A stretch of DNA of 61,999 nt from an uncultured Azospirillum sp. (GTDB lineage Bacteria; Pseudomonadota; Alphaproteobacteria; RF32; CAG-239), in the NCBI GenBank assembly GCA_900542055.1, contig UQMA01000005.1:1-61999 (forward strand). The letters run 5' to 3'. Positions 20,044 to 54,698 of the stretch are shown in pieces. Numbering within the stretch: position 1 is the first letter of the stretch; each line of letters begins with the position of its first letter. The notes beneath the pieces are model-generated. The model was not told the DNA's origin, searched no databases, and saw only the letters and a program-made list of their open reading frames with translations. The translations under genes were made by a program, and so were the position numbers.

Positions 20044-20295
20044 ATGGACGATATTTCACAACTTTTGCAAGAGGCTAAGCCTCTTTATTTCTCCCGAAAA
20101 AAACGGCGCAGCCGCATAAAAGCCGGAATATGTATGCTTGTCGGTCTTGCAATGCTCGGTGCTTTGTACCCGCAAAAATCTACATTGATAGACAATGGAG
20201 AATGGATAGATTATGAACAATACATAAGCCAGTCTTCTCCTATTGAAAAGATGGGATTACCTGTTGATGAATATGGATTTTTGATGGTTGGCTGA
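20044..20295 (+). CDS. small single-pass membrane protein (possible anti-sigma-like partner)
   Basis: 83 aa. KKRRSRIK then a TM (AGICMLVGLAMLGAL). AAGGAGG RBS. TGATG overlap with the sigma gene. Confidence 0.55.
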   Translation: MDDISQLLQEAKPLYFSRKKRRSRIKAGICMLVGLAMLGALYPQKSTLIDNGEWIDYEQYISQSSPIEKMGLPVDEYGFLMVG

Positions 20296-20789
20296 TGAAA
20301 GATATTATAACTGAAAACAAAGGTTTTATCAGATCCGTTATTCATAAAGTGACCGGCGGATATAATGAAGACATTGAACAGGAAGTCTATATAAAAACCT
20401 GGAGAAACATCGAAAACTATCAAGAACAAGGAAAATTCAGACAATGGCTGAGTGCCTTAACCGCCAATGTTTGCCGTGACTATTTTCGTTCTAAAATCAA
20501 CCGTGAACGTAATATGGAACTATGCGACGATGAAGTTCTTGAAAATATTGCAAGCGAACAGCTTCAAGAAGAAGTTTTAGACGCTAAAAAGCGCCAAAAA
20601 CTTATATTGAAAGCCGTCGACAATCTTCCCTATAAAATGCGTAAAATCGTTGTATTGCACGAATTTGAAGATATGCCTCTTGAAAAAATAGCCGATAAAA
20701 TGGGAATTCCGCTCGGAACGGTAAAATCTCGTTTATTTAATGCAAAAAAAATTTTAAGCCAAAAATTGGCCTTTCTGAAAGGAGAATAA
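20295..20789 (+). CDS. ECF-type RNA polymerase sigma factor
   Basis: Region 2 (FRQWLSALTANVCRDYFR) and region 4 HTH (LEKIADKMGIPLGTVKSRLFNAKK). Confidence 0.85.
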   Translation: MKDIITENKGFIRSVIHKVTGGYNEDIEQEVYIKTWRNIENYQEQGKFRQWLSALTANVCRDYFRSKINRERNMELCDDEVLENIASEQLQEEVLDAKKRQKLILKAVDNLPYKMRKIVVLHEFEDMPLEKIADKMGIPLGTVKSRLFNAKKILSQKLAFLKGE

Positions 20790-20791
20790 AT

Positions 20792-21280
20792 ATGAACAAA
20801 AAACTTTTAACTATTGCTTGCGCATCGTTACTTTTGTTTGCCGGCAACAATGTTATCGCCGCTGAGGGAGAAAGTGTTTTAAACAACCACCCCGCACAAA
20901 ATGATATGCCGATACCACCTAAACACAGAAAAATGAAATCGGGAATGCATACTGACCAACTAGCAAAAGAGCTGGATTTAACAGCAGAACAAAAAGAAAA
21001 AGCCGAAGCTCTCCGCAAAGCTGATTTTGAAAAAATGAAGCCATTGATTGAGCAAATGAAAGAACTGCACAAAAAAATGGATGAATTGCGCAAAGAAAAT
21101 ATGAAAAACTTTGAAGCAATTTTAACGCCTTTGCAAAAAGCCAAATTAGACGGCATTATGTTGGAACGTAAAAAACAAATGGAACATTTCAGAAAAGATT
21201 TTCAAAACAAAAAACGCCCAAATGCTCCTTTTCCACCTATGGACGAACACTTTCCGCCTAAACCCATGCCTGAAGAATAA
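20792..21280 (+). CDS. periplasmic LTXXQ-motif protein (Spy/CpxP/ZraP family)
   Basis: Signal peptide, two LTxxQ motifs (LTAEQKEK, LTPLQKAK), helical K/E-rich. Lies 2 nt after the sigma gene. Confidence 0.7.
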   Translation: MNKKLLTIACASLLLFAGNNVIAAEGESVLNNHPAQNDMPIPPKHRKMKSGMHTDQLAKELDLTAEQKEKAEALRKADFEKMKPLIEQMKELHKKMDELRKENMKNFEAILTPLQKAKLDGIMLERKKQMEHFRKDFQNKKRPNAPFPPMDEHFPPKPMPEE

Positions 21281-21297
21281 GCTTTCTGATTTAATAT

Positions 21298-21330
21298 AAA
21301 AAAAATCCTCGATTTTCGAGGATTTTTTTT
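21298..21330. terminator. bidirectional terminator
   Basis: AAATCCTCG-atttt-CGAGGATTT flanked by A8 and T8. Confidence 0.85.
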
Positions 21331-21334
21331 ATAT

Positions 21335-22573
21335 TTAGCGTCTGCGGGGTTTATTTTTCGATTGCCCCAATAACAGAGTGATAACATACAAAGCTCCGTT
21401 TATTATGGTTTTGCGTTCACGAACTTTTAATGAACTCCACCAATCCAATGCTCGACGAAATATTCCCATTTTTTCTTTATTTTTAGGAGTTTCCTCTTGT
21501 TTTTCTTCTCTTTCAGCAATCTGACCATTACTCAACGGCTCAACCTTTGCCCGATAAGGCTCTAAAATTGAGCTTATTTCATTATCGGAAACGTAGGCAC
21601 CATGAATTCTTTTCAGTTCACCGCTTTGCGGCAAATATAAAGAATCTCCCCTTCCCAATAATTCTTCAGCTCCAGGCATATCCAAAATAGTACGGGAATC
21701 TGTTTGTGAAGCCACTTTATAAGATAATCTGGTTGGAAAATTTGCTTTTAATACTCCCGTAACAACATCAACGGATGGGCGCTGCGTCGCCAAAAGTAAA
21801 TGTATTCCAGCTGCGCGGGCTTTTTGCGCCAATCTTTGAACAGAAATTTCGACACTTTTATCGCCAGCCATTAAATCGGCAAACTCATCAATTACACAAA
21901 CAATATATGGCAGTTCTCCGCATCTTTCGTGATATTCTCCGATATTACGTACTAATTCTTTTTCAAAAAGCGCATATCTATGTTCCATTTCATCAATCAA
22001 ATAAACCAGTGTATCAGCGGCTTGTCGATTATCGGTTACAACAGGAACCAACATATAGCGTTGATTGTTATATACGGAAAATTCTATACGTTTGGGATCT
22101 ATTAGAACAAATTTCAATTCAGACGGCTTTTTACGGGCAATCAGAGAAAGTATAAAACTATTCAAACCGACTGACTTTCCAGAACCGGTAGTTCCTGCAA
22201 TCAACAAATGCGGCATTTTAGCCAAATCTGCAAAGACAGGCTGTCCGGATATATCCACACCAAGGCATAACGGCAAATCACCTTTTGCATTTTTAAATTC
22301 AGCGCTATTTAAAATATTTGAAAAATTTACTGTTTTCATTTCTGCAGCCGGAATTTCAAATCCAAGTTTTGAAGTTCCGGCAATAGCTTCAACACGCAAT
22401 GAAGTTACTCCCATCTCACGGGCAATATCCGGTAAAGATGATGTAATATTTTTGATTTTGGTTCCGGCTGCCGGTAGAAATTCTATTTGTTTTATCATAG
22501 GGCCTGTATTTTCGCCGGTTATTTCACCTTTGACCCCATAATGGAGCAATATTTCAGCCAAGTTTTGCAGCAT
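21335..22573 (-). CDS. FtsK/SpoIIIE-family motor (alpha+beta domains only) with predicted C-terminal tail anchor
   Basis: Starts at the alpha domain. Walker A GTTGSGKS, DEFADL, ATQRPS. Ends in charged linker EREEKQEETPKNKEK, then TIINGALYVITLLLG, then KNKPRRR. No N-terminal TM and no gamma domain visible. Confidence 0.8.
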   Translation of the reverse strand: MLQNLAEILLHYGVKGEITGENTGPMIKQIEFLPAAGTKIKNITSSLPDIAREMGVTSLRVEAIAGTSKLGFEIPAAEMKTVNFSNILNSAEFKNAKGDLPLCLGVDISGQPVFADLAKMPHLLIAGTTGSGKSVGLNSFILSLIARKKPSELKFVLIDPKRIEFSVYNNQRYMLVPVVTDNRQAADTLVYLIDEMEHRYALFEKELVRNIGEYHERCGELPYIVCVIDEFADLMAGDKSVEISVQRLAQKARAAGIHLLLATQRPSVDVVTGVLKANFPTRLSYKVASQTDSRTILDMPGAEELLGRGDSLYLPQSGELKRIHGAYVSDNEISSILEPYRAKVEPLSNGQIAEREEKQEETPKNKEKMGIFRRALDWWSSLKVRERKTIINGALYVITLLLGQSKNKPRRR

Positions 22574-22586
22574 TATTTTTTATTCC

Positions 22587-23141
22587 TTATTTTATCAGTT
22601 TCTGCGCAATTTCTTTTGCCATTTTATTAATTAATTGGCTTTGCCCTTCAGCGACACCATCAAAACCACTGGAAATTTTTACTTCTGCGGTTGTGCGTCC
22701 ACGTGCGGAAATTTTATCATTTTTATAAATTGTCCACCAAGCATCCAACATTGCTTTTTTATTCATAACCGCATCAAATTTATTGATTTCAACCGTTACA
22801 GCATAATTAAAATCTTCAGAAGCGTATGATTTAGGCTTGATTAGAGAATTAGGCAAATACAAAGACATATCATCAGCTAAAACTCTGGCGATGGACATAT
22901 TAAGAGGTTCTGCCCAGCGGTTGAACTCGGAAACTTTTAATTCGTTGGAATCAGTTTCGGTTATCACTATTTGCGGACGATCCACATAAGTCGGAATTGA
23001 AATATCATTAATTCCGATAATCATTTTGCGGTTTGACAAACTTTCATCTCCGGTTGCCGCTTGCAATTGATAAAATCTAGAATTAGGCGTTATTGAACAG
23101 GCTTCAATTAAGAAAATAAACAAAATTATATATTTTTTCAT
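22587..23141 (-). CDS. PqiC/DUF330-like ABC-transport auxiliary lipoprotein
   Basis: Lipobox FLIEAC followed by SRFYQL, typical of the PqiC/YmbA family. Confidence 0.7.
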   Translation of the reverse strand: MKKYIILFIFLIEACSITPNSRFYQLQAATGDESLSNRKMIIGINDISIPTYVDRPQIVITETDSNELKVSEFNRWAEPLNMSIARVLADDMSLYLPNSLIKPKSYASEDFNYAVTVEINKFDAVMNKKAMLDAWWTIYKNDKISARGRTTAEVKISSGFDGVAEGQSQLINKMAKEIAQKLIK

Positions 23142-23927
23142 TTAATATCCTCCTTTTCCACGCAAAAGCGACTCTGGGTGTCTTTCTACATAATCTGCAA
23201 AATTATTCAGCGATTTTGCCGCATTTGAAATATTTTGCATTGCACGGTTAAAATTGTTCAAAGCTTCAGGCATAGCGCGTGTTCTTCCCGGAATTACGGA
23301 AAAACTTTCCATTAATTTGCTTGTTTTCGGAACAATATCATTATTTAAACTGTCAAAAAAAGTATTCACTTTATTTAAGGTTTCGCGCAAAGGTAATTCC
23401 TGAATACCGCGGGAGAGTTCCGCAAACTGAGAAAGAACCGTGGGAATTTCTGGAATTTTACTGTCCGGTTGAGAACGATAAACCGCTTCATCGTTTTTAG
23501 CAACAAATTCAAGTTCTATCATCAATTGTCCGGTTAAATAGTTTTGAGTAGACAATCTGGCGCGCAAACCGTTTTTGACCAATTCTTTCAAGACCTGACG
23601 CGCATTTTGGTGCGGTTTGTTGGAAGATATTTTTTTTTCATTAAAAGCCACATAAACCGGAATGCTGAAATCAAAATCGCTCAAATCGGTTATAATATCG
23701 ATTTTTGCAACTCGTCCAATGGCAACACCTTTGAAAACCACAGGTGAACCGACATCAAGTCCTTTTATTGATTCCGAAAAATACATAACAACCAAACGAT
23801 TGCTGTCTTTCATAATTTTATCCGACACAAACATACCAACAGTGGCAAAAAACAGTGCCACTCCGCAGAGGATAAACAGACCGATAAGTTTATTATTTGG
23901 TTTTCTGCGCATTTTTACCTTCTCCAC
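23142..23927 (-). CDS. MCE/MlaD-family substrate-binding protein
   Basis: N-terminal TM then MCE domain (GLDVGSPVVFKGVAIGRVAKI). Alternative start at 23912. Confidence 0.8.
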   Translation of the reverse strand: MEKVKMRRKPNNKLIGLFILCGVALFFATVGMFVSDKIMKDSNRLVVMYFSESIKGLDVGSPVVFKGVAIGRVAKIDIITDLSDFDFSIPVYVAFNEKKISSNKPHQNARQVLKELVKNGLRARLSTQNYLTGQLMIELEFVAKNDEAVYRSQPDSKIPEIPTVLSQFAELSRGIQELPLRETLNKVNTFFDSLNNDIVPKTSKLMESFSVIPGRTRAMPEALNNFNRAMQNISNAAKSLNNFADYVERHPESLLRGKGGY

Positions 23928-24669
23928 GAGTTAAAAATTGAAACACTTTTTCATTAGGCGGATTTTTTAGAAGTTCGCGAGGATTGCCCCGCGCCAAAAT
24001 TGATTTGCTGTCGCCATCCAAAAAAATAGAATTGTTGCCGACTGCAAAAATAGAACTCAACTCATGCGTAACGATAACAATCGTTGTGCCCAAGCTTTGA
24101 TTTATATCCAAAATTAAATCATCCAGCAATTTTGAACTTACGGGATCGAGCCCTGCCGACGGCTCATCAAAATAAACCGTTTCAGGGTCAAGCGCTAAAG
24201 CCCGAGCCAAACCCGCACGCTTTTTCATTCCGCCGCTGATTTCGGACGGATAAAATTCTTCAAAACCGCTCAATCCAACCAGCGCTAATTTTAAAGACAC
24301 CAATTCTCTTATTTCAGCATCAGAATAATTTTTGTACAACTGTAAAGGCAAAGCAATATTTTCTGCCAATGTCATTGAACTGAACAAAGCTCCGCTTTGA
24401 TACAATATTCCATTATTTTGCATAATTTTATTTTTGGTCTTCATTGGTGCGGATATAAAATCGACACCATCAACAAAGACCTTTCCGGATAAAGGAGAAA
24501 CCAACCCTGTTAAGACACGCAGCATACTGCTTTTTCCGCAGCCTGATCCCCCCATTATAATAAAAATATCATGCTGATTTATTACAAAATTTAAATTTTG
24601 CAACAATACAAAATCACCATAACCGATAGTCAAATTTTTCGCTTCAATTTGTGCTTTGTTTTCTGTCAT
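23893..24669 (-). CDS. ABC transporter ATP-binding protein (MlaF-like)
   Basis: Walker A GGSGCGKS, signature SGGMKKRAGLARAL, Walker B VYFDEP. Confidence 0.9.
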   Translation of the reverse strand: MTENKAQIEAKNLTIGYGDFVLLQNLNFVINQHDIFIIMGGSGCGKSSMLRVLTGLVSPLSGKVFVDGVDFISAPMKTKNKIMQNNGILYQSGALFSSMTLAENIALPLQLYKNYSDAEIRELVSLKLALVGLSGFEEFYPSEISGGMKKRAGLARALALDPETVYFDEPSAGLDPVSSKLLDDLILDINQSLGTTIVIVTHELSSIFAVGNNSIFLDGDSKSILARGNPRELLKNPPNEKVFQFLTRGEGKNAQKTK

Positions 24670-25784
24670 ATATTCAGCACCTCACAAGCAACCGTAATTA
24701 TTCCGGTCATAACTATCATCCAAACGATTGCAGCCACAACTGCTTTAGTGGTCGCTGTACCGACACTATCGGCATTGCGTCCGCAGAAAATTCCATAATA
24801 ACAACCGCAAATTGCCGTAACTATACCAAAAACCAAACCATGAAAAAGTCCTACAAAAAAATTATTCAAAGCAATGGCTGAAATAGACATGTCCCAATAT
24901 TTTTGCAGAGGAATCCCCAACATGGTCACCCCTACAAAACCACCGCCCAGCATTCCCATAAAATCTGCCCACATGGTTAAAATCGGCATTGTAATTGTTA
25001 ATGCCAAAATTCGCGGTAGAACCAGAAAATCAATCGGATTTATACCCATTGTTTTAAGAGCATCAATTTCTTCGTTAACCTGCATTGTCCCGATTGTCGC
25101 CGCATAAGAAGCGCCGGTACGGCCGGCCATAATAATTCCGGTCATAATTGCCCCCATAATACGGGTCATACCTATGGTTACCAAACTGGCAACATAAATC
25201 TGAGCTCCAAATGTTTTAAGCTGCACAGCGCCGACAAAAGCTAAAATAAGCCCGACCATAAAACTTATTAAAGAAACTATCGGCAACGCACGATATCCGC
25301 AATCTTCTAAAGCAAAAGAAAAATCTATAGGACGCATAACCGATTTTCCGGCAAAAATGCGTAAAAAAGCTTGTCTTGATTGTATTAAAAAAGCTCTGCC
25401 GCGTTTAAAACTTTCATAAACGTTTACACCCCATATCCCGACTTTTTCAAGCATTTTTGCCTTTTCGTTTTTTGGTTGCGCTGGGTTGCGATCAACCGAA
25501 AAAGCTAAAGAAATCAATCTTGATAAACCGGCAGGAAAAGAGCGCTGTTCTATTTTTATGCCGCGGCGGCGGGAAATTTTTTCGAGTTCGAAAATAATAG
25601 CTACCAATGATGAATCCCATTGCACAAGTTTTGAAGCGTCTATAATTATACTCCGCACTTGCTGATTATGAGCCGCGGCATATAAACGCAATTTTTTATC
25701 TTGATTTTTATAGGAAGCAAAACTTCCTTCAAGAACCAAGGTTAAAACAGCTCCATTTATGTTAAAATTCAAGTTTTCTGTCAT
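24666..25784 (-). CDS. MlaE-family ABC permease with N-terminal STAS domain
   Basis: STAS-like N-terminal ~100 aa, then MlaE-type permease (EEIDALKTMGINP). Confidence 0.85.
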   Translation of the reverse strand: MTENLNFNINGAVLTLVLEGSFASYKNQDKKLRLYAAAHNQQVRSIIIDASKLVQWDSSLVAIIFELEKISRRRGIKIEQRSFPAGLSRLISLAFSVDRNPAQPKNEKAKMLEKVGIWGVNVYESFKRGRAFLIQSRQAFLRIFAGKSVMRPIDFSFALEDCGYRALPIVSLISFMVGLILAFVGAVQLKTFGAQIYVASLVTIGMTRIMGAIMTGIIMAGRTGASYAATIGTMQVNEEIDALKTMGINPIDFLVLPRILALTITMPILTMWADFMGMLGGGFVGVTMLGIPLQKYWDMSISAIALNNFFVGLFHGLVFGIVTAICGCYYGIFCGRNADSVGTATTKAVVAAIVWMIVMTGIITVACEVLNI

Positions 25785-25820
25785 TACTATAATGTATTAT
25801 CATTTCTTTCGATGTCAATA

Positions 25821-25860
25821 AAATTTAACCTCGGAAACAGCAGTTCCGAGGTTAAATTTT
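25821..25860 (-). terminator. long-stem terminator after the orphan gene at 25882..26334
   Basis: AAATTTAACCTCGGAA-acagcag-TTCCGAGGTTAAATTT. Confidence 0.75.
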
Positions 25861-25881: not shown

Positions 25882-26334
25882 TCATGCCAACAACTGATTT
25901 TGGCGAAGTGTGTACATAAGACTATCACATTCTGCATAACAAACTGCGTTCAATGCAATTTGCTGTGCAGTCCGACAACGACGCGTCTTCATAACCTCAT
26001 GCGATTGACGAATGCGGTATGAAATCGTTTTCCAATTGGTAGACGGGCACTTTTTCAATAAGTAGACCACCCAACGGGCTACACACAAAAAGCTTTTGCC
26101 GGAACGGAGCTTGTCCAAACTTTTCACCAGATCCGCACGGTCTTCATCAGACAACACACGACCAGCGGTAAGCTGTTTGAGCCAAAGTTTAAGTTCTGAC
26201 AAATTGTCATCGTCAACCAACTTGAGCGCGATGTTATCATCATCTGCTGGAGCAGTGATAAACATAGGCAACGCGCACACAATCATTAAAATCATAAACA
26301 GCCCGAAAGCTATCCATACAAAAACTTGTACCAT
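25882..26334 (-). CDS. hypothetical membrane-anchored protein, atypical composition
   Basis: 150 aa. N-terminal TM (VFVWIAFGLFMILMIVCALPMF), Cys-rich C-terminus. G/C-richer codons than neighbours. Confidence 0.55.
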   Translation of the reverse strand: MVQVFVWIAFGLFMILMIVCALPMFITAPADDDNIALKLVDDDNLSELKLWLKQLTAGRVLSDEDRADLVKSLDKLRSGKSFLCVARWVVYLLKKCPSTNWKTISYRIRQSHEVMKTRRCRTAQQIALNAVCYAECDSLMYTLRQNQLLA

Positions 26335-30677: not shown

Positions 30678-31532
30678 TTACACCAATTCATAATTTGAGC
30701 TATCAGAAAATAGCTTTTTTAATACTTCGTTATTATGGAAATGTCCGGACTTCATTGCCTTCAAATTGCCGATAACAGAATACCCCGATGTATACATATC
30801 GCCGATTGCGTCCAGAACTTTATGATTAACACACTCATTGGTATTTTTCATTCCGTTTGGATTCAGTACTTTTTCACCATCGAGAACCAACGCATTATCT
30901 AAACTGCCTCCTTTAATCAATCCCAAAGACTGCAAATAATCAATTTGCGCTTTTTCGCAAAATGTCCGGCAAGGAGCAATTTCTTCAGCAAAAAGTTTTT
31001 CGGAAATTTTCCCATGAAATTCTTGGTGTCCGACGATTTTTGAAGGAAACTCTATTGTAAAATCAATTACCAATCCGTCATCTGCCGGACTAAGCTCAAC
31101 TCCGCACCCTTTTTCATCCGTAAATGAAACTTTTTTAAGAACTTTCAAAAATTTGCGCGGAGTATTTTGTTCTCTCAGAGGAATTTGTTTTAATCTTTTA
31201 TATAATGTTTCTGCACTGCCATCCAAAATAGGAATTTCAGGATTAGAAACTTCTATTTTAGCATTATCAACACCCAATATGTACAAAACAGACATCAGAT
31301 GCTCGATTGTACTGACAATATTTTTATTGCTGTCGGCAAGACAGGTGCAATTGCGCGTATCAGACACCTGCGAATACAAAGCTTTCATTTGCGGTTTTTC
31401 CGGCAAATCCGAACGAATAAAAACAATTCCGCTGTTTTCGTCAGACGGAAAAAAAACGAGCTTTGACGGCAACCCCGAATGAAGACCTATTCCGCTGATT
31501 TCAAATTTTTCCGCAAAAGTATGCTGCAGCAT
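30678..31532 (-). CDS. lpxC: UDP-3-O-acyl-GlcNAc deacetylase LpxC
   Basis: ATG at 31532 follows GGAGG (MLQHTFAEKFEISGIGLHSG...). Motifs TIEHLMS and HKVLDAIGD. The ORF-track extension to 31619 overlaps rnpB and is rejected. Confidence 0.9.
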   Translation of the reverse strand: MLQHTFAEKFEISGIGLHSGLPSKLVFFPSDENSGIVFIRSDLPEKPQMKALYSQVSDTRNCTCLADSNKNIVSTIEHLMSVLYILGVDNAKIEVSNPEIPILDGSAETLYKRLKQIPLREQNTPRKFLKVLKKVSFTDEKGCGVELSPADDGLVIDFTIEFPSKIVGHQEFHGKISEKLFAEEIAPCRTFCEKAQIDYLQSLGLIKGGSLDNALVLDGEKVLNPNGMKNTNECVNHKVLDAIGDMYTSGYSVIGNLKAMKSGHFHNNEVLKKLFSDSSNYELV

Positions 31533-31555
31533 AAAATCCTCCGTATAAAAACTTT

Positions 31556-31948
31556 CAGGCAGCCTATAAGCCGGGTTCTGTATTTTGCTTATCCTAAAGG
31601 AAAACAAAACGATAGCCATTCATCTGGGCACTGCATCACTGACGTGCTCATCGCGACCTACCTCTGGAGCAGAGTGGAAACGCTCCGTTTAACTTTGAAA
31701 AAATCAAAGCCCTCCTAATTTGGTCTTGCTTCAGACAGGGTTTACCTTGCCAAAAACATTGCTGTTTTCGCGGTGAGCTCTTACCTCGCCTTTTCAACCT
31801 TACCGGAATCAAGTCCGGCGGTAACTTTCTGCGGCACTTTCCCTTGGATTTCTCCAGCCAGACGTTATCTGGTGTCTTGTTTCCATAAAGCCCGGACTTT
31901 CCTCATTAACGGATTTTACCTTCCGCAACGCGGCTATCCAGCTGCCTG
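31556..31948 (-). ncRNA. rnpB: RNase P RNA, bacterial type A
   Basis: Minus strand contains GAGGAAAGUCCGGGC, GGUAAGAGCUCACCGCG, AGCAAGACCAAAU, CCAGAUGAAUGGCU and ACAGAACCCGGCUUAU. P1 pairs CAGGCAGC with GCUGCCUG. Confidence 0.93.
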
Positions 31949-32107
31949 TGTATAAAATTAATCTATTCCGCATGAAAAGCAAGCAAAAAGTTATTTTTTT
32001 AAGACCTGTTATAATAGCTTACAACTCTTTGTTTTATATGATTTTATATTTATTAAAGCACATTTACATAAAGAACATAACATGAACAGTTAATAAAACA
32101 CTAAATT

Positions 32108-32133
32108 TTCCCATTGATTCCCAAAAATTCCCA
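32108..32133 (+). promoter_or_regulatory. MraZ operator: three direct TTCCCA (TGGGAA on the opposite strand) boxes at exact 10-bp spacing, overlapping a promoter-like TTGATT-17-TATACC
   Basis: TTCCCA at 32108, 32118 and 32128. TTGATT at 32114..32119 and TATACC at 32137..32142. Confidence 0.6.
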
Positions 32134-32202
32134 TGTTATACCATAACAGTAGGTAATCTAAAAATTTAAAGGGCAAAAAAGTTGAGAAAAACATTTCTCT
32201 TC

Positions 32203-32646
32203 ATGGATACAATAACAAACAAGGTGGACGCAAAAGGCCGCGTTTCACTGCCCGCAGATTATCGTGCAATTGTTAAAGATTTATCAACGGAAATCGTTTG
32301 TTACCGCAGCTTGACTTCGCCCTGCATAGAAGGCTGCGCCGAAGAATTGCTTGAAAAAATTGCCACCGATATGGAAACTTCTCTCGACTTTTTTTCACAA
32401 ACTCAAGACGATTTGACCAATCTTATTTTCGGAGATGCCCGCCGTTTCAGTTTTGACAGCACCGGAAGAATTATGCTGAGCGAAAAGCTCTTAAAACATG
32501 CTCAGATTACCGATACCGCCGTTTTTGTGGGAAAAGGCCGAAAATTTCAAATTTGGAATCCTGAAAATTGGGCTAAGGAAGAAGCCCGCATTCGCGCCGA
32601 AGTTATGAAAAAACGTCCTTCACTGAGTGTACAAGGAGGATGTTAA
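32203..32646 (+). CDS. mraZ: transcriptional regulator MraZ
   Basis: ATG at 32203. Duplicated KVDAKGRVSLP / DSTGRIML SpoVT-AbrB-like motifs. Confidence 0.9.
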   Translation: MDTITNKVDAKGRVSLPADYRAIVKDLSTEIVCYRSLTSPCIEGCAEELLEKIATDMETSLDFFSQTQDDLTNLIFGDARRFSFDSTGRIMLSEKLLKHAQITDTAVFVGKGRKFQIWNPENWAKEEARIRAEVMKKRPSLSVQGGC

Positions 32647-32650
32647 GACA

Positions 32651-33577
32651 ATGGTACAAAAACATATTCCGGTTATGTTAAAAGAAGTATTGCAAGCCTT
32701 ATCTCCTGTTGACGGGGGCATATATGTTGACGCAACTTTTGGCAACGGCGGATACAGCGAAGCAGTTTTGCAAACTGCAAATTGCAAAGTTATAGCCATT
32801 GATCGCGACCCTAATGTTCGCCAAAGAGCTGAAGAATTAAAATCAATTTATGGAAATCGTTTCGAATTTTGTTCAGGATGCTTCGGCGATATAAAAACTT
32901 TGATAAATACTACCGTTGACGGAATTATGTTTGACATCGGCGTATCTTCAATGCAGTTGGATCAAGCTGAACGAGGTTTTTCTTACAGTAAAGACGCTCT
33001 TCTTGATATGCGTATGTCCTGTTCGGGAATATCTGCTTTTGATCTGGTAAACAATACGGCTGAAAAAGACTTGGCCGATATTATATACAAATACGGAGAA
33101 GAACGTAAATCCCGCCAAATTGCCGCAAGAATTATTGCGGAAAGGCAGAAATCGCCTATAAAAACCACACGAGAACTTGCTGAAATTATCTATTCGGTTA
33201 TTCACAAAAAAGCCGGACAACCCGATCCGGCAACCAGAACATTTCAGGCTTTGCGAATTGCAGTCAACGATGAACTCGGAGAACTTGAACGCGGATTATC
33301 AGGCGGTTTATCCGTGTTAAAATCAGGCGGTAAAATTGTGGTTGTTACTTTTCATTCGCTTGAAGATCGTATTGTCAAAAACTTTTTCAATCAAAAATCT
33401 GGACGCCATGCCAATGCGTCACGCTATATGCCGCAAATAATTGATACCGTTCCGGCGGAATTAGAAAATTGTTCAAAAGCAATTTTGCCGTCTGAAGAAG
33501 AAATTGCGGCTAATTCGCGCGCACATTCCGCAAAAATGCGGTTTGCAACCAAAATAACGGAGGCTGAACATGAATAA
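32651..33577 (+). CDS. rsmH: 16S rRNA (cytosine1402-N4)-methyltransferase RsmH
   Basis: AAGGAGGA then ATG at 32651. HIPVML, DATFGNGGYS, DIGVSSMQLD, SLEDRIVK. Confidence 0.93.
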   Translation: MVQKHIPVMLKEVLQALSPVDGGIYVDATFGNGGYSEAVLQTANCKVIAIDRDPNVRQRAEELKSIYGNRFEFCSGCFGDIKTLINTTVDGIMFDIGVSSMQLDQAERGFSYSKDALLDMRMSCSGISAFDLVNNTAEKDLADIIYKYGEERKSRQIAARIIAERQKSPIKTTRELAEIIYSVIHKKAGQPDPATRTFQALRIAVNDELGELERGLSGGLSVLKSGGKIVVVTFHSLEDRIVKNFFNQKSGRHANASRYMPQIIDTVPAELENCSKAILPSEEEIAANSRAHSAKMRFATKITEAEHE

Positions 33578-33956
33578 CACAAAACCTGCCATCGTCTGCT
33601 TGTGGTTTGCTCTTGCCATATTTATGGCCTTTTGGACTTTTGCTATGAAAAATTCTGTTGAAGATCTTGAAAAGGAACTGGCTCAAATTAACAGTAAAAT
33701 CAATGAAGATGTAAAATCGATACATATTCTCAAAGCGGAATGGAGTCACTTAAACAATCCTGAGCGTCTGAGAAATTTAGCTGCCAAGCATATTGCTCTT
33801 GAACCGGTTAAAGCCGAGCAAATAATCAATTATGCCTCTTTGCCGTTTGAATATGAATCAGATGCAACAACGCGTAAAATGCTGGCTCGCCGCAATATAA
33901 ACAGCCGCGCCACAGAAAACAAAGAACTGCGCCGACTGGCTAAAGCCCAGAGGTAA
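33570..33956 (+). CDS. ftsL: cell division protein FtsL-like
   Basis: Position between rsmH and ftsI. Single TM then coiled coil. 8-nt overlap with rsmH. Confidence 0.7.
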   Translation: MNNTKPAIVCLWFALAIFMAFWTFAMKNSVEDLEKELAQINSKINEDVKSIHILKAEWSHLNNPERLRNLAAKHIALEPVKAEQIINYASLPFEYESDATTRKMLARRNINSRATENKELRRLAKAQR

Positions 33957-33962
33957 AGTTCT

Positions 33963-35702
33963 ATGAAACTATGGTTTAAGAAAAAAGAAAAATTTTATTT
34001 GCCGGGGGAAGAAATTAAAGTCAACCGGTCTTTTTCTTTTAGTAATTACAATATTGAAAAAGACCCTTTGGCTAACTGTAAAGTCAGAATGGCTTGGGTA
34101 ATTTTAGGCATTGCTATTATTTATATAACCATTGCCCTTCAGACCTTTCTTATTTGTTTCAGCGGGTATAAACCCAATGTCAATAGTGTTGAAGAAGACG
34201 GCGATTTGCCGCAGGTTCAAATTGAAAATCCAATTACGCGCGCTGATATTGTCGACAGAAACGGCACTGTTTTAGCTACTTCTTTGCCAACAGTAAACCT
34301 GTACGCCAAACCCAAACTTATTCGCGATAAAGAAGCTGTTGCCTCAAAACTAAGTGAATTTATTCCGGATATGCTGTATGAAGATATCTTAAGCAAAATC
34401 AGCAAAAAATCTAAATTTGTTTATATCAAGCGCAATCTCTCGCTGGCACAAAAATACCAAATTTACGCTTTGGGAATTGAAGGTTTGGGATTTGAAGATA
34501 TGGAAAAACGCGTGTATCCGCACAAAAACCTTTTTTCGCATATTTTAGGAAAAACCAATATAGATAACATCGGCATCTCCGGTATAGAAAAAGAACTTAA
34601 CGAACGTTTGACAACTTCGGATGTAGCTCTAAAATTAAGCATTGATTCAGGAATTCAAGACACTATACGCGAAAAATTGGAAAGCGCCGTAAATAAATTT
34701 AACGCCCTTGGCGGGACTGCTATTTTAATGGATGTCAACAGCGGTGAAATTATTTCTATGATATCTCTTCCCGATTTTGATCCCAATTTAAGCGCTGCTC
34801 CGGAAGAGCGGGCGCAGTTTAATTTTGCAACCAAAGGATTATATGAACCGGGATCTGTTTTAAAAATATTCAACGCCGCTATGGGATTGGAAAGCGGAAA
34901 AATAAATTTAACCGACAAATTTGACGCCACAAAACCTCTAAAGCTCAGATATAACACAATTAAAGATTATCGAGGTGAAAACAGATGGTTAAATTTGCAG
35001 GAAATTCTTATTTACTCTTCCAATATAGGCTCCGCACAAATTGCTCTGAAAGTAGGCAAAGAAACACAGCAAAAAATACTCGGCAGTTTAGGCTTGTTTG
35101 ACCCGATTAAAAATTTTGAAGTTGCCGAAAAAGCAAGTCCGAGTGTGCCTCGCCGATGGGGAGAAGAAACAACGGCAACCGTTGCTTACGGATATGGAAT
35201 TTCAGTTACACCTTTGCATTTGATTTCAGCTTTTGCTGCTGTTGTTAACGGAGGAACTTATTATACGCCGACTTTGCTGAAATATAATGAAAAACCAAAA
35301 GGAAAAAAAGTTATTTCTACAAAAACCTCAAAAATGATGCGTGAACTGCTAAGAGGCGTAGTTGTTAAAGGTTCAGGAAAGCGAGCTAATGTCGCCGGAT
35401 ATGAAGTTGCCGGCAAAACCGGAACAGCGCAAAAATTGGTAAATGGCAAATATATTGATAAAAAAGTAATGACTTCTTTTATTGCCACTTTCCCTGTATC
35501 CGCTCCGCGCTATGCTCTGCTGTTGATGATGGATGAACCTAAAGCAAGTAAAGAAACTTATGGTTTTGCAACATCCGGTTGGAATACGGTTCCGACTGCC
35601 GGCGCAATCATAACGGCAATTGCTCCGCAGCTCAATATCAAAGCTAATTATGATATTGACGATAAAAGAATGAAAATGATTGAAGCGTCATTTTTACGCT
35701 AA
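33963..35702 (+). CDS. ftsI: penicillin-binding protein (FtsI/PBP3-type transpeptidase)
   Basis: N-terminal TM, SVLK (SxxK), SSN, KTGT. Confidence 0.9.
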   Translation: MKLWFKKKEKFYLPGEEIKVNRSFSFSNYNIEKDPLANCKVRMAWVILGIAIIYITIALQTFLICFSGYKPNVNSVEEDGDLPQVQIENPITRADIVDRNGTVLATSLPTVNLYAKPKLIRDKEAVASKLSEFIPDMLYEDILSKISKKSKFVYIKRNLSLAQKYQIYALGIEGLGFEDMEKRVYPHKNLFSHILGKTNIDNIGISGIEKELNERLTTSDVALKLSIDSGIQDTIREKLESAVNKFNALGGTAILMDVNSGEIISMISLPDFDPNLSAAPEERAQFNFATKGLYEPGSVLKIFNAAMGLESGKINLTDKFDATKPLKLRYNTIKDYRGENRWLNLQEILIYSSNIGSAQIALKVGKETQQKILGSLGLFDPIKNFEVAEKASPSVPRRWGEETTATVAYGYGISVTPLHLISAFAAVVNGGTYYTPTLLKYNEKPKGKKVISTKTSKMMRELLRGVVVKGSGKRANVAGYEVAGKTGTAQKLVNGKYIDKKVMTSFIATFPVSAPRYALLLMMDEPKASKETYGFATSGWNTVPTAGAIITAIAPQLNIKANYDIDDKRMKMIEASFLR

Positions 35703-43216: not shown

Positions 43217-45346
43217 TTATTTTAAAATGTTCTTAATAAGCCCTTTTGCTGTGTTTTTTATTTCTTTTGCGCTGTCTTTTACCATATCAATGCCGTTACT
43301 TACTGCCTGAGATGCACCTTGATAAGTTTTTTGAGCAGTATTGGCAACGCCTGTCGGTTTTGAAAATTTATTTTTATAGATTGTATTTTCCAAAGCCGTA
43401 TAGCATGGAGCTGTATCTTTATCAAGCAGCATCTGTGCTCCGTTAAGAGCACCGCCGGTTGCAGCAATTCCGGCTATTGTTTTGATCGCCCCGCTTTCAT
43501 CAATAGCTATTTTAGGCGACTGTAAAGTTCCGTTAACTTTTATCAAATTAGATAAAGCATGAACAATACTGACATTTGCAACGCCGCTGCGATAAGCATT
43601 TATATTGAAACTAAGTTTATCATTCCGCAAATTAAGCGTTCCGTTGCTTACCAAATTGAGTTTGTCTGAATCGATAGCTATTCCTTTTGGAAAAGTTATT
43701 TTTCCGTTTTCAAAATCAGCACGGACGACCGCGCATTTCAAGCTTACATTCTTACTTTTTTGAGTATCTATTTTCAAAAGATTGAGTAATTGCGATACAA
43801 AACTGTTAGTCAAAAATTTCAAACTTCCGCTTTGCAATTCTGATTTATCAACAATAGCAATGACTTGTCCGTTCAGATTGTCGGCCACGTCACGCAGCGT
43901 TGAACCGCTGCCATTCAAATCAATATAAGTTTGAGTGCTGCCGCCGGAAAGAAAACCAAAGTCATATTCATTTTCAACTAAAAATTCACGATGAATATCG
44001 TTCATCAATATCCCATCTGTCGTTCCTTTGATTGCAATGCTGTGAGAAGCGGCCGACACCACAGCCGTTAAACTTGCTTTTCCTTGCCCTAAATTAAAAT
44101 CAAATGGTTTAATATTCAGCATGCCATCGTTTAAATTTGCTTGCAAATTAATATTTGCTAACGACAAATCAGAATCAACGACCAATCGTTTTAATTTCAA
44201 CGAAATTTTTGCATTAACCATTTTCAGTAAATCATAAGGAATAACTTCTGGCGGAATAATGGCACTTGCCTGCGCCGACTTGATAAGTTCAATATTAAAG
44301 GCAGTAGGCGAAGAAGAATTTAAACTTTGCAAATCAAATTTATCACCTTCTACATAAGCGGTTATATACGGAATTTTTTCCGATATATTTGCACTTATTT
44401 TGCCTTTTAACAAATTTTTCACAACATTCAAATTTGTTATATCAAGATTAATCTGAGCAAGCGTAGCATTGCCGGTACCGATAAGCGTTGTTTCAGGAGC
44501 ATTCATATTGCCAGCCGGATTATATATATTATAATCAAAAACCGCGCTTAATTTGTCAGATGTCAAATTTTTTATTTTAGCATTCAGCAGAGCTTTTATT
44601 CCTAATGCTTCAGCATCCAATTTTAATGGATATTCGCCCATTCCCGACAAAAGCGCAGACAAAGAACCAAGCTCGCCTTTGCCGTTAAACTCCATTCCGT
44701 TAAAAACTAAGCCCCAACTGACATTCATCGGGCTGTTTATTCCTTCAGTGTTAAAACTGATTTGATTGATATTCAGATTTATTTCTGATTTTGCTTTATG
44801 ATCATAGTATTTAACAATTCCATTTTTTATTGCCACTTCACGCGCTACAAAATCAGACAGAAAATCCGCCATGCTGTCTTTTTCAGCCGCATTTGCCGAT
44901 TTTAACAGCCAACCGCCTTCCGATATGGCTACAGATTTATCACCTGAGCCAAACGAAATATCCCAACTATTTTTTCCATCTTCTGAAGTTTCCAAATATA
45001 TTTGAGGTTCCTTCAAAAGCGCCCTATCGACCACAATTTGTTTAGACAGCAACGGCAATAATGAAAAACGCAATTCGATTGTTTTAATTTTTGCCATCTG
45101 CGGATTTTTTGCCCAAGCAGGATTGGCAAAAGAAATATCATTGATTACAATCGTCGGTATTAATGAAATTCCCAAACTGGCCTCTCCGGCAATTGTTAAT
45201 TTACGTCCGGTTTGTTCATAGACCATATTTTCGGCAAAGGTCTTATACTTGTTTAAATCAAAATTTTTCAGAAAAACATATACAAGAACCGCAATTGCCA
45301 AAATGACAACAAAAACTATCCCAAAAAGCCATTTTAAGAATTTCAT
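43217..45346 (-). CDS. AsmA-family outer-membrane biogenesis protein
   Basis: N-terminal TM, long beta-rich repetitive body, C-terminal AsmA-like region. Confidence 0.7.
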   Translation of the reverse strand: MKFLKWLFGIVFVVILAIAVLVYVFLKNFDLNKYKTFAENMVYEQTGRKLTIAGEASLGISLIPTIVINDISFANPAWAKNPQMAKIKTIELRFSLLPLLSKQIVVDRALLKEPQIYLETSEDGKNSWDISFGSGDKSVAISEGGWLLKSANAAEKDSMADFLSDFVAREVAIKNGIVKYYDHKAKSEINLNINQISFNTEGINSPMNVSWGLVFNGMEFNGKGELGSLSALLSGMGEYPLKLDAEALGIKALLNAKIKNLTSDKLSAVFDYNIYNPAGNMNAPETTLIGTGNATLAQINLDITNLNVVKNLLKGKISANISEKIPYITAYVEGDKFDLQSLNSSSPTAFNIELIKSAQASAIIPPEVIPYDLLKMVNAKISLKLKRLVVDSDLSLANINLQANLNDGMLNIKPFDFNLGQGKASLTAVVSAASHSIAIKGTTDGILMNDIHREFLVENEYDFGFLSGGSTQTYIDLNGSGSTLRDVADNLNGQVIAIVDKSELQSGSLKFLTNSFVSQLLNLLKIDTQKSKNVSLKCAVVRADFENGKITFPKGIAIDSDKLNLVSNGTLNLRNDKLSFNINAYRSGVANVSIVHALSNLIKVNGTLQSPKIAIDESGAIKTIAGIAATGGALNGAQMLLDKDTAPCYTALENTIYKNKFSKPTGVANTAQKTYQGASQAVSNGIDMVKDSAKEIKNTAKGLIKNILK

Positions 45347-51755: not shown

Positions 51756-51790
51756 CAAAAAAGGCTCTCTTTCGAGAGCCTTTTGCTTTT
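51755..51790. terminator. bidirectional terminator
   Basis: AAGGCTCTC-tttc-GAGAGCCTT flanked by A6 and TTTTGCTTTT. Confidence 0.85.
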
Positions 51791-54698
51791 ACCATGTATA
51801 GCTTATTCCTATCCCAGCAGAGAAAGAATCATAACTTGAGCCGTAAGTATAATTGCCCCAAGAATAGCCGTATATACTATCGTTAAAATGATAATTTCCA
51901 CCAACTTCAATGCGAGATAAAGTCTGATCGTGATATGTGGTCAGTTCATTCATTCTTGAAATTTTAACATTATCATCGGCAGTTATGGTCTGTATTATGC
52001 TAGGTTTAACATAAACACGTCCATCAATATAATCTTTTTCTATTTTAACTCCCAATTCTGCTTCAAAATATTTTATATTATCCCAGTTATAATTTTTTCC
52101 CATATTATCAGAAGCAGAATCGAAGTTTAATTGAGTATAGTAAAAACCAATACTTGGGGACATTGTTAATTTCTTTCCGATATCATAAGTTTTACCATAT
52201 TCAGTCATTAAGCCAAATTCAACTCCGTCCGTATCAAAAGACATTCCATCATCAGTGCCAATTTCAGCCTTTTGTCCCCCTCCATATACACTGGCAAACA
52301 ACCAATGCATATTTTTATCATAGCGATAATATAATCCGCCTAGATAGCTATCAATTTTAATATCGCTGCCGATTGACGAATGAAGTTTAGTTCCTTTTCC
52401 CGATAAGTCATAACTGCCGTCACGATAAGAAACAAAGACACCTAATGTATTATTGATGTCATTTTGAAGGTCAAAACCACCTTCGACTCCCCAAATTTTG
52501 GCATCCATACTCACAGGTTTGTCAATATTAGCATTTTCTCCTTGTGTTAATACCCATGCATTGCGAAGTTTTTCTCCATTCCACGCATCTGATGCGATTT
52601 TGGTTTCCGAAACCTTATTATTAACATTTCGGAAAACGTTGCGAGTTTGTTCAACAGCTGCCTCATGCAAACCTACTCCCGCAATAATTTCCGGATTATA
52701 TACTATTGCTTTGGAAGCAGCTGGTTTTCCAGGCTCCGGAAACGTAAATTCATCGTCAATAGATAATATCGGAGGAACAAAATCTACATAGTCTTTTTCA
52801 TTATTTTCTTCTGTTCCGACCAAATACCAATAACTTCCTTGTGTTTCTCCATTTATATTATAGGCTACAGTCCATTTATACGGACTTCCGTATACTCTAA
52901 ACACACTAGGGGTTGTTCCGTTAACATCATTTGGAGCTTCTATAAATAAAACGCTTGCTCCTCTGTTATCTTCTCTGGTTTTATCATAAACTACAACCTG
53001 TGTCGTTCCCTCTATTTGACCACTGATTGACAAAATATCTGCAACCCATTTATCATTATTTTTCAACACATCGACGTGAAGGAATGTGTCTCCGGATGCT
53101 GTATAATTTTTCATTTTAATTTTATCAGCATAGTCATTATATAAGTAGAACCAAGAATCATTCAGCGTTAAGCTTGTTACTGCGTCAGCATCAAAATCAG
53201 GCGCTTTATAATTATTTTTTGCTGTTGCAACAAAGTTTCCTCTACAATTATCACCACAACCATAATCATCAGTATATGGAGCTTTGTTAAAAGACAAAAC
53301 AGCTCCGTCAACAGCGACTTCTCTAGCGTTAGAAATATAATTATTCATAAAGAATTTGCCGCTTCCATAACCTTTTATAGCAATATCATAAACCGCATTT
53401 TCTCCGGTTGCAATTCTTCCCATTATACTATCATTAAAGTATAAATTTCCTTTTCCTGTAATATCAAAAGTCAGCTTAACAGGTGTATTGCTCTCATTGT
53501 CAACAAATATCGCATTATACGCTTTGCCATATTCATTTTTTGCATAGTTACCGGTAAAATAATTATCTAAACCATTAGCAACAAACGTCATATCACCGCC
53601 AATGTACAGTGCGCCTCCATAAGCGTGTGTTGATGAGCTTTCCGCATAATTATTTATAAAGCTTCCTGTAATAGTATTTATACCGTTAGCTGAATGTATT
53701 GCTCCGCCTAATGCTTGCGGCGCTGAAACATAATTCCCAATAAAATTGCCATATATATCCGGCATAACACCTGTTTCCGCATTCATAATAGCACCGCCGT
53801 AAGCATAACTGCCTGCTTTAGCATAATTTCCGATAAAATCAGCCTGAATTAAAGGAATAATAATACCGCCTTCTACATTTTCATTACCTATTCTGGCAGC
53901 AGCGTTAAAAATTGCTCCTCCTCTAGCGTGTACTCCGCCTTCCACATAATTTCCAATAAAGGTTCCTTTTATTTTTTCAATAGTGCCGGTAAGATTAACA
54001 ATAGCCCCTCCCCCGGAAATTCCATTTGAAAAAACATGATTTCCTATAAAATTAGCATTTATTTCCTTAAAGCTACTTATTAAATTAGCCAGCGCTCCGC
54101 CAGCGGCCCGTGCATCACTGCTCGGTTTTTGGTGATTTACAGAATTGCCTATAAAATCACCTACCAACAAATTTACGCTTCCAGGCATGTTATAAGAGGC
54201 TCCGTTTTGCATGGCTCCGCCATATCCCACCGGATCGGATGTTCCAAGTTGCAGTTCATTACCAATAAAATCAGCTGTTAATTTTTCTATTTTTCCTCTG
54301 TTTACAAATGCACCAGGACTTAACCAATTTGTTCCTTGGGATTTATAAAAATACCCAGTGTATTCATCTATATTACTTGAATTGTCTTGTCTGGTATTAT
54401 GAACTTGTCCTAACTTATCTTCTCCAAGAAAATCAAGAGATATTTTTTTATACACCGGAGAGGTTGTCAAATCATCGTTAATTTTATAAAAAACAAAATC
54501 ATTATCATTCACAGAAGCAGGAGCATCAAATGTTATGCTGTACCCGCTATTTATCGAAGATTGATTTTTTTCATAGGCTTTATCAAGTGAGGGAACATAT
54601 TTATTAAAATCATACAAAACGGTTTCGCCTGAAATGGCTGCACTTGAATATAAAAATGGGCTAAGAGCTAATAATTTTGCGTAATTTTTAGTTTTCAT
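51789..54698 (-). CDS. autotransporter with Pmp-type (GGA[ILV] / FxxN) passenger repeats
   Basis: Signal peptide. Many alternating GGAI/GGAL and F(I/T)GN motifs (ADFIGNYAKA...YGGAIMNAE...). C-terminal beta-barrel ending SAGIGISYTW. Confidence 0.85.
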   Translation of the reverse strand: MKTKNYAKLLALSPFLYSSAAISGETVLYDFNKYVPSLDKAYEKNQSSINSGYSITFDAPASVNDNDFVFYKINDDLTTSPVYKKISLDFLGEDKLGQVHNTRQDNSSNIDEYTGYFYKSQGTNWLSPGAFVNRGKIEKLTADFIGNELQLGTSDPVGYGGAMQNGASYNMPGSVNLLVGDFIGNSVNHQKPSSDARAAGGALANLISSFKEINANFIGNHVFSNGISGGGAIVNLTGTIEKIKGTFIGNYVEGGVHARGGAIFNAAARIGNENVEGGIIIPLIQADFIGNYAKAGSYAYGGAIMNAETGVMPDIYGNFIGNYVSAPQALGGAIHSANGINTITGSFINNYAESSSTHAYGGALYIGGDMTFVANGLDNYFTGNYAKNEYGKAYNAIFVDNESNTPVKLTFDITGKGNLYFNDSIMGRIATGENAVYDIAIKGYGSGKFFMNNYISNAREVAVDGAVLSFNKAPYTDDYGCGDNCRGNFVATAKNNYKAPDFDADAVTSLTLNDSWFYLYNDYADKIKMKNYTASGDTFLHVDVLKNNDKWVADILSISGQIEGTTQVVVYDKTREDNRGASVLFIEAPNDVNGTTPSVFRVYGSPYKWTVAYNINGETQGSYWYLVGTEENNEKDYVDFVPPILSIDDEFTFPEPGKPAASKAIVYNPEIIAGVGLHEAAVEQTRNVFRNVNNKVSETKIASDAWNGEKLRNAWVLTQGENANIDKPVSMDAKIWGVEGGFDLQNDINNTLGVFVSYRDGSYDLSGKGTKLHSSIGSDIKIDSYLGGLYYRYDKNMHWLFASVYGGGQKAEIGTDDGMSFDTDGVEFGLMTEYGKTYDIGKKLTMSPSIGFYYTQLNFDSASDNMGKNYNWDNIKYFEAELGVKIEKDYIDGRVYVKPSIIQTITADDNVKISRMNELTTYHDQTLSRIEVGGNYHFNDSIYGYSWGNYTYGSSYDSFSAGIGISYTW

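Follow-up and report, generated by a model that had tools for sequence, protein, structure and literature searches.

The last of five packed minus-strand genes on contig UQMA01000005.1 of an uncultured Azospirillum sp. (Alphaproteobacteria; RF32; CAG-239; assembly GCA_900542055.1) encodes a short FtsK of 412 amino acids (aa) that is a genuine FtsK alpha-beta motor. The stretch analyzed, hereafter the window, comprises positions 1 to 61,999 of the forward strand. We consider it probable that the protein represents a distinct FtsK clade without the gamma domain or the N-terminal four-transmembrane (4-TM) domain, with a C-terminal membrane tether, sister lineages in phages and a role in clearing DNA from the septum, and that its linkage to MCE-type lipid-transport genes is incidental. 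In textbooks, FtsK ties division to the segregation of chromosomes and to the resolution of dimers by XerCD, and its three-part design (membrane/divisome domain, motor and gamma domain) is regarded as near-universal in bacteria. The short clade is apparently undescribed; a literature search found no gamma-less, C-terminally tethered chromosomal FtsK, and nothing relevant on the RF32 gut alphaproteobacterial group either.

The original prediction, made from the sequence alone, had described an FtsK/SpoIIIE motor that starts directly at the alpha domain and carries the Walker A motif GTTGSGKS, and Pfam matches, fold and invariant motifs all agree with it (Table 1). The alpha-domain match covers profile positions 27 to 100 of 101, the first ~26 positions being absent. 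In a 50-sequence alignment (mean column identity, 61%), Walker A, DEF and ATQRPSVD are invariant. The protein aligns end to end with the Pseudomonas aeruginosa FtsK alpha-beta motor (2IUU; E value, 1e-99), and its motor is 43 to 48% identical to structurally characterized FtsK. An AlphaFold2 model built on the same alignment (mean predicted local distance difference test score [pLDDT], 89) was compared with known structures in Foldseek and gave TM-scores of 0.76 to 0.83 (root mean square deviation, ~2 Å) to the FtsK motors of Escherichia coli and P. aeruginosa (2IUS, 2IUT, and 6T8B), in contrast to 0.55 for TcpA and ≤0.57 for EccC.

On the three defining tests of canonical FtsK (4-TM domain, gamma domain and curated score), the protein fails throughout. 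It has no Pfam match to FtsK_4TM (PF13491) or to gamma (PF09397), and it scores 327 bits against the canonical equivalog PRK10263, for which the curated cut-off is 1566. The missing 4-TM domain, likewise predicted at the outset, is not hidden upstream: in the 13 short-form loci first examined (L001 to L013), the frame ahead of the gene stays open for just 0 to 10 codons, and an in-frame stop lies directly upstream in the window too. The predicted absence of gamma was borne out with tblastn, for which a query that we take to be E. coli gamma was used and long-FtsK loci from GTDB genomes served as controls. Neither the window nor any short-form locus gave a match, and 75 of the 76 controls were positive. 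The remaining control (L046) was considered as a gamma-less long FtsK, and possibly an intermediate, and was rejected when a divergent gamma was read by eye in its sequence.

A short gene could also arise by frameshift or mis-assembly or from an ftsK in decay, and the unusual length would by itself fit such an artifact or pseudogene. The best 120 homologue clusters in a collection of 5.8 billion proteins, however, are 349 to 436 aa long, 58 to 99% identical and built of the same two Pfam domains. Altogether, the architecture recurs in >120 clusters from metagenome-assembled genomes (MAGs) of gut and rumen Alphaproteobacteria, in independent assemblies (NCBI, ENA, JGI, and Logan); a pattern scan of GTDB returned at least four short-form species among the matches listed. 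Because the short architecture recurs with conserved columns, the upstream frames are closed and gamma is absent where controls detect it, we exclude frameshift, mis-assembly and pseudogene, and the confidently modeled fold leaves an artifact with a vanishingly small probability.

The C-terminal tail (...TIINGALYVITLLLGQSKNKPRRR) is present as first noted. Nearly all of the 120 homologs share its plan, in which a charged linker leads to an amphipathic helix rich in Trp, then to a helix of weak hydrophobicity and lastly to a polybasic end; after the linker, the tail reads as the motif [GS][FW][FW]RRx[LW][NDE][FW]WsSLRx[RK][ED][KR]K, then a segment of ~15 to 17 residues (xI[IV]xG......G), then the polybasic end. 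AlphaFold2 places two helices in the tail (residues 371 to 381 and 384 to 401; pLDDT, ~88 to 91), and the hydrophobic moment of the amphipathic helix is 0.61. The single hydrophobic helix of the original prediction is there, but it is not of transmembrane (TM) grade: the best 19-residue Kyte-Doolittle window (KD19) in the tail is 0.84, and the classical TM threshold is ~1.6. Across the chromosomal clade, the median KD19 is 1.21, with 10% of members at ≥1.6, and a Lys or Arg falls within the first 11 residues of the hydrophobic segment in 36 of 119 homologs. From the inverted, tail-anchored topology proposed earlier we therefore keep a membrane-associating tail that is family-wide; a true anchor is doubtful for a tail that is weakly hydrophobic, amphipathic and basic on both flanks. 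Since the second helix is weakly hydrophobic and its flanks are basic, the tail is read as a putative membrane-associating module, spanning or in-plane, and not as a proven anchor.

The nearest relatives outside the chromosomal family are phage proteins, a kinship that the original prediction had overlooked. In an exhaustive search of 1.84 billion representatives, the short family formed a few 50%-identity clusters amid thousands of long FtsKs. One match, P0173 (381 aa; 51% identity), has the same alpha-domain start, no gamma and a very hydrophobic C-terminal segment; beyond its own clade, its best matches are the chromosomal short family, and its best 120 are all 369 to 448 aa long. Close relatives of P0173 lie on phage contigs of ~75 kb (L090, 74 kb; L091, 77 kb) that encode a Mu-type portal, YopX, Kyano_Gp96, a T4-type RNA ligase and a cell-wall hydrolase, together with dozens of very small open reading frames (ORFs) that lack annotation, and IMG/VR holds a relative at 81% identity. 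All nine proteins of the phage branch have TM-grade segments at their C termini (KD19, 1.97 to 2.73). The short FtsK of the window also matches PHROG 1358 (323 bits) and PHROG 3551 ("FtsK/SpoIIIE-like protein"). Phage FtsK/SpoIIIE-like genes are an established class in annotation and account for 387 INPHARED records, and a literature search on these proteins found no characterized function.

A neighbor-joining tree was generated from Kimura distances among 57 motor domains (344 columns, 300 bootstraps). The chromosomal short clade received a support of 1.00, as did the grouping of short and phage proteins against all long FtsKs; the long alphaproteobacterial FtsKs (Micavibrio, Hyphomicrobiaceae, P0163, and others) group elsewhere. 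Mean identities were 0.66 among short proteins, 0.50 between short and phage proteins, 0.47 between short and long proteins and 0.57 among long proteins.

Several records beside these groups deserve mention. The phage loci L090 (1-21146), L091 (1-21173) and L093 (IMG/VR) have a GC content of ~33 to 37% and encode a motor-only FtsK with a C-terminal TM anchor; at positions 1-1483 of L090, a DNA methylase is broken by an intein with a LAGLIDADG domain. INPHARED record MT836231.1 is an 11.7-kb "Bacteriophage sp." contig from human feces that lacks annotation; the full-length short FtsK encoded on it is 59% identical, and the contig may be a piece of chromosome wrongly filed under phages or a true phage copy nearer the chromosomal clade. 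P0150 to P0155 (935 to 1,227 aa) had the top bit scores of the representative search, with at least two separate matched stretches each, and may be tandem FtsK motors or chimeric predictions. P0364 (629 aa), a relative of the long P0163, has the 4-TM, alpha and motor domains on record and no gamma, perhaps through truncation or through an independent loss.

The window gene and the loci of 18 relatives are chromosomal, in housekeeping contexts and never in a prophage, and a viral contig search returned nothing >48% identical to the window protein. Because divergence tracks synteny groups, the short ftsK appears, from these neighborhoods, to be a vertically inherited cellular gene of uncultured gut and rumen Alphaproteobacteria.

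Conservation of the five-gene order (mlaE-mlaF-mlaD-pqiC-ftsK), on which the original prediction had built a possible role in a different membrane process, was checked in these relatives. The order is kept in a subclade of six lineages at ≥68% identity, namely the window together with L192 (the same species), L005/6, L007/8, L009, L010 and L180. The pqiC-ftsK spacing in the linked loci is 8 to 13 nucleotides (nt), with 8 to 9 nt in L005, L007, L009 and L010, and those with enough upstream sequence also share bamD-recN-gltX-NUDIX synteny (L006 and L008 are short contigs). In 12 lineages at 57 to 67% identity (L001, L002-4, L011, L012, L013, L092, L183, L186, L187, L188, L189, and L191), there is no MCE gene in the available flanks. 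Their ftsK sits after a DUF308 gene (L001), after argS (L092) or behind a divergent upstream gene (L002 and L011), in which last two it presumably has its own promoter. An all-against-all comparison of nine neighborhoods found no gene besides ftsK common to all, and linked and unlinked lineages do not differ in how well motor and tail are conserved.

The position of ftsK behind the MCE genes would thus be best explained as a lineage-specific operon fusion, with transcriptional hitch-hiking, and not as functional coupling. A coupling to lipid transport is unsupported because 12 lineages are without the MCE linkage, motor and tail are equally conserved there and the transporter has its own ATPase. 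Of the two options proposed originally, the remodeled architecture holds and the recruitment to lipid transport fails. Tight operon linkage alone is a poor guide to function unless relatives are compared.

By analogy with canonical FtsK, the short protein is presumably a hexameric pump for double-stranded DNA: the alpha-beta motors would form a hexameric ring on DNA and pump it with ATP, and the six C-terminal tails, via flexible linkers, would hold the ring at the cytoplasmic face of the inner membrane. Translocation without gamma would lack sequence-guided direction, with no reading of FtsK-orienting polar sequences (KOPS) and no gamma-mediated activation of XerD. According to two reports, gamma-deleted FtsK/SpoIIIE motors still translocate and lose sequence-guided direction and XerD activation (PMC3130261, PMC4744071), so the short FtsK would clear DNA without reading KOPS. 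The tethered motor would probably act on DNA in the closing septum.

Other readings of the gene were weighed against this one. An FtsK-like ATPase might have been recruited to the MCE transporter and act with MlaFE, MCE and PqiC in envelope lipid trafficking. Within the subclade, the single terminator-bounded five-gene unit and the conserved pqiC-ftsK spacing speak for this, but the absence of MCE genes from the flanks of 12 lineages of the same family, with tail and motor equally conserved, does not fit, and neither does the ABC ATPase that the transporter already has. The motor, moreover, closely resembles that of DNA-pumping FtsK: its alpha-beta fold is intact, and its catalytic motifs do not vary. 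The literature search found no link between FtsK and MCE proteins; we consider recruitment very improbable. A component of an anti-phage defense system with an FtsK-type motor, SspH-like or MADS mad8-like, is suggested by domain-level PADLOC matches (SspH, 194 bits; mad8, 113 bits). These matches span just the motor embedded in proteins of 1,561 to 1,766 aa and score below FtsK (327 to 337 bits), and the neighbors are housekeeping and MCE genes, with no Ssp or MADS partner genes nearby, which makes a defense role scarcely credible.

A domesticated extra paralog of phage origin, is a weightier alternative, though we think it unlikely. Such a protein would work beside a full-length FtsK, which would remain the main septal translocase, and would have a non-division role, for instance in dealing with phage DNA or other foreign DNA at the membrane. 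This reading would account for the phage-borne sister lineages, the position of the short and phage clade outside the long alphaproteobacterial FtsKs, the PHROG matches and the abundance of motor-only FtsK-like genes in phages, and long FtsKs exist in other alphaproteobacterial MAGs. Against it stand the conserved housekeeping synteny, never in a prophage, the divergence that follows synteny groups as expected for vertical inheritance and the lack of a close copy on any viral contig. The window holds no ftsK paralog besides the short gene, and no co-resident long ftsK was seen in the fetched short-form loci, which is a very weak test. That the short FtsK is the only FtsK of the cell, having replaced the canonical protein, is a tentative proposition that ranges from doubtful to somewhat short of balanced, and it is doubtful that an order-level gut and rumen group as a whole replaced canonical FtsK by a phage-related, gamma-less, C-terminally tethered motor.

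Some considerations weigh against the distinct, septal DNA-clearing clade that we favor. Membrane binding by the tail is a prediction, and a helix below the TM threshold with basic flanks speaks against a true span. The septal housekeeping role is a proposal, and a canonical ftsK may coexist with the short gene. In a neighbor-joining tree on Kimura distances, long-branch attraction may exaggerate the grouping of short and phage proteins, both of which evolve fast. The spacing of 8 to 13 nt behind pqiC has been kept over ~30% divergence, so that co-expression with the transporter may have a selective value.

A motor-only family in many lineages and in phages lets one ask, as a natural experiment, which functions of FtsK can be lost. 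If the short protein is the sole FtsK, there would be diderm proteobacteria without divisome assembly by the FtsK N-terminal domain, KOPS-guided directionality or gamma-mediated XerD activation, in which segregation and dimer resolution would finish without those three features. A paralog of phage ancestry, present in addition to a canonical FtsK, would instead represent the long-term domestication of a phage DNA pump.

Re-reading of the ORFs returned the five packed minus-strand genes, their junctions and their motifs as first described (Table 1).

Table 1. Features of the five-gene unit, the short FtsK and the flanking transcription signals (window coordinates)
Feature	Position	Strand	Description
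Candidate sigma-70-like promoter	25791..25818	-	TTGACA-16-TACATT; 10/12 matches in consensus scan
Intrinsic terminator	25820..25860	-	Hairpin and T-run; free energy (dG) -21.5 kcal/mol; z -4.96; 0/200 shuffles as good
mlaE	24666..25784	-	MlaE-family ABC permease, 372 aa; PF02405, 232 bits
mlaF-like	23893..24669	-	ABC ATPase, 258 aa; PF00005, 85 bits; 4-nt overlap with mlaE
mlaD/MCE	23142..23927	-	Single MCE domain; PF02470, 41 bits
pqiC-like	22587..23141	-	ABC_trans_aux (DUF330) lipoprotein, 184 aa; PF03886, 106 bits, profile positions 1-161 of 161
pqiC-ftsK spacer	22574..22586	-	13 nt; AAGGA overlaps pqiC stop (TAAGGA)
Short ftsK	21335..22573	-	412 aa; FtsK_alpha PF17854, 51 bits; FtsK_SpoIIIE PF01580, 185 bits
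Walker A GTTGSGKS	22172..22195	-	aa 127-134; columns G127-S134 invariant in 50-sequence alignment
Linker	21467..21541	-	aa 345-369 (~25 aa), charged; pLDDT ~51-53; length and sequence vary among 120 homologs
Amphipathic helix GIFRRALDWWSSL	21428..21466	-	aa 370-382; Trp/Arg-rich; W379 invariant; pLDDT ~88-91
Weakly hydrophobic C-terminal helix TIINGALYVITLLLG	21365..21409	-	aa 389-403; flanked by RERK and polybasic end
Strong bidirectional intrinsic terminator	21293..21335	both	A-run, hairpin, T8; dG -22.7 kcal/mol; z -9.45

The MlaE permease, the ABC ATPase and the MCE protein are encoded together, and all three score above their Pfam cut-offs. The first gene had been called a STAS-MlaE permease; the MlaE part stands, and the STAS part stays below the Pfam threshold. 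Its N-terminal extension of ~125 aa is weakly STAS-like (PF01740, 19.4 bits, cut-off 22.6; PF13466, 17.2 bits, cut-off 29.2), the L007 ortholog has a weak STAS_2 match on record and the protein scores 209.1 bits against TIGR00056 (cut-off 212.2). The best NCBIfam match of the ATPase is MlaF (172 bits), whose equivalog cut-off of 441 is not reached. In the MCE protein, a TM helix lies at the N terminus and the helical C-terminal region resembles PqiB, with a partial match to its profile (positions 282 to 497 of 542). The reported overlap of mlaD with the ATPase gene (23893..23927) exists between the ORFs, but gene callers in five relatives start mlaD six codons downstream, at an ATG at 23912 (256 aa), which is likely the true start and would reduce the overlap from 35 to 20 nt. 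There is no gap between mlaD and pqiC (23141/23142). The fourth protein, with a signal peptide (...LIEAC) that includes the lipoprotein cysteine, scores 58 bits against NCBIfam pqiC (cut-off 200) and is PqiC-like only. Because the NCBIfam equivalog cut-offs for MlaF and MlaD are not reached, the transporter proteins are classed, on profile scores, as Mla-like and not as orthologs of E. coli MlaFED.

The terminator at the upstream end closes a hypothetical gene and insulates the five-gene unit, and the terminator at the downstream end begins at the ftsK stop and is common to a convergent plus-strand gene ending at 21280. The 13-nt gap between pqiC and ftsK is too short for a terminator or promoter. 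Because of the flanking terminators, the promoter-like site and this short internal gap, the five genes are most likely co-transcribed as one predicted unit. The -10 element of the candidate mlaE promoter stops ~7 nt before the ATG at 25784, and the operon mRNA may be leaderless or nearly so.

Converging on ftsK and using its bidirectional terminator is a plus-strand trio (20044-21280) of an anti-sigma-like 83-aa gene, an extracytoplasmic function (ECF)-type sigma-70 (164 aa) and an LTXXQ/Spy-like periplasmic protein (162 aa), which adjoins ftsK in L005, L009, L010 and L192 too. On the other side, separated from the operon by the terminator, lies a minus-strand gene (25882-26334) whose hypothetical product of 150 aa is hydrophobic in an N-terminal segment and has no Pfam, NCBIfam or PADLOC match; it is kept between NUDIX and mlaE in L005, L007 and L192 and is missing in L009.

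Elsewhere in the window, positions 30678-35702 hold lpxC, then a class A RNase P RNA (31551-31949, minus strand), then divergent mraZ, rsmH (mraW) and ftsI, and this division and cell wall (dcw) cluster stops after ftsI at a minus-strand gene at 35699. The lpxC ORF (313 aa) overlaps the RNase P RNA, an overlap that the relatives' call of 284 aa removes. An AsmA-family protein (709 aa; 43217-45346) and an autotransporter (969 aa; 51789-54698) are encoded on the minus strand. A diderm envelope is confirmed, at the level of predicted genes, by AsmA, the autotransporter, BamD, LpxC and a SurA/PpiD-like protein (136-2007).

Among known systems, the first four genes resemble MlaFEDB and PqiABC in their MlaE permease, MlaF-like ATPase, MCE protein and PqiC-like lipoprotein. 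The arrangement here differs as a hybrid: it is ABC-driven, with a single MCE domain, a PqiB-like helical tail and a PqiC-like lipoprotein, and the unit has no separate MlaB, MlaC or MlaA gene, a weakly supported STAS-like region being fused to MlaE instead.

The short FtsK shares with the canonical proteins of E. coli and P. aeruginosa a motor 43 to 48% identical, with TM-scores of ~0.8 and the Walker A, Walker B and TQRPS motifs, but it has no 4-TM divisome domain, long linker or gamma, and membrane association has moved to the C-terminal tail; a beta-domain loop of ~27 aa in P. aeruginosa FtsK is also missing. SftA of Bacillus subtilis is an FtsK-family septal translocase without TM helices that works beside a membrane-bound paralog; to our knowledge, it always coexists with SpoIIIE. 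The family and the absence of TM helices liken SftA to the short FtsK, from which it differs in keeping gamma and an N-terminal soluble targeting domain and in having no C-terminal membrane tail.

FtsA and MinD have membrane-targeting amphipathic C-terminal helices, which the helix described here resembles in its amphipathic character, its basic and aromatic residues and its flexible linker (hydrophobic moment, 0.61 versus 0.57 for a peptide that we take to be the E. coli FtsA helix). It differs in that it is followed by another helix, of greater hydrophobicity, and by a polybasic end and that the cargo is a DNA motor. The FtsK/SpoIIIE-like proteins of phages (PHROG 1358 and 3551; for example, in cluster J mycobacteriophages and Bacillus phages) are likewise motor-only and without a divisome domain. 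The phage branch (P0173, P0331, and relatives) also starts at the alpha domain and lacks gamma, and it ends in a hydrophobic anchor, to which the C-terminal tail described here may correspond. The window gene, in contrast, is chromosomal, and its tail carries a Trp-rich amphipathic motif and a polybasic end in place of a plain TM helix.

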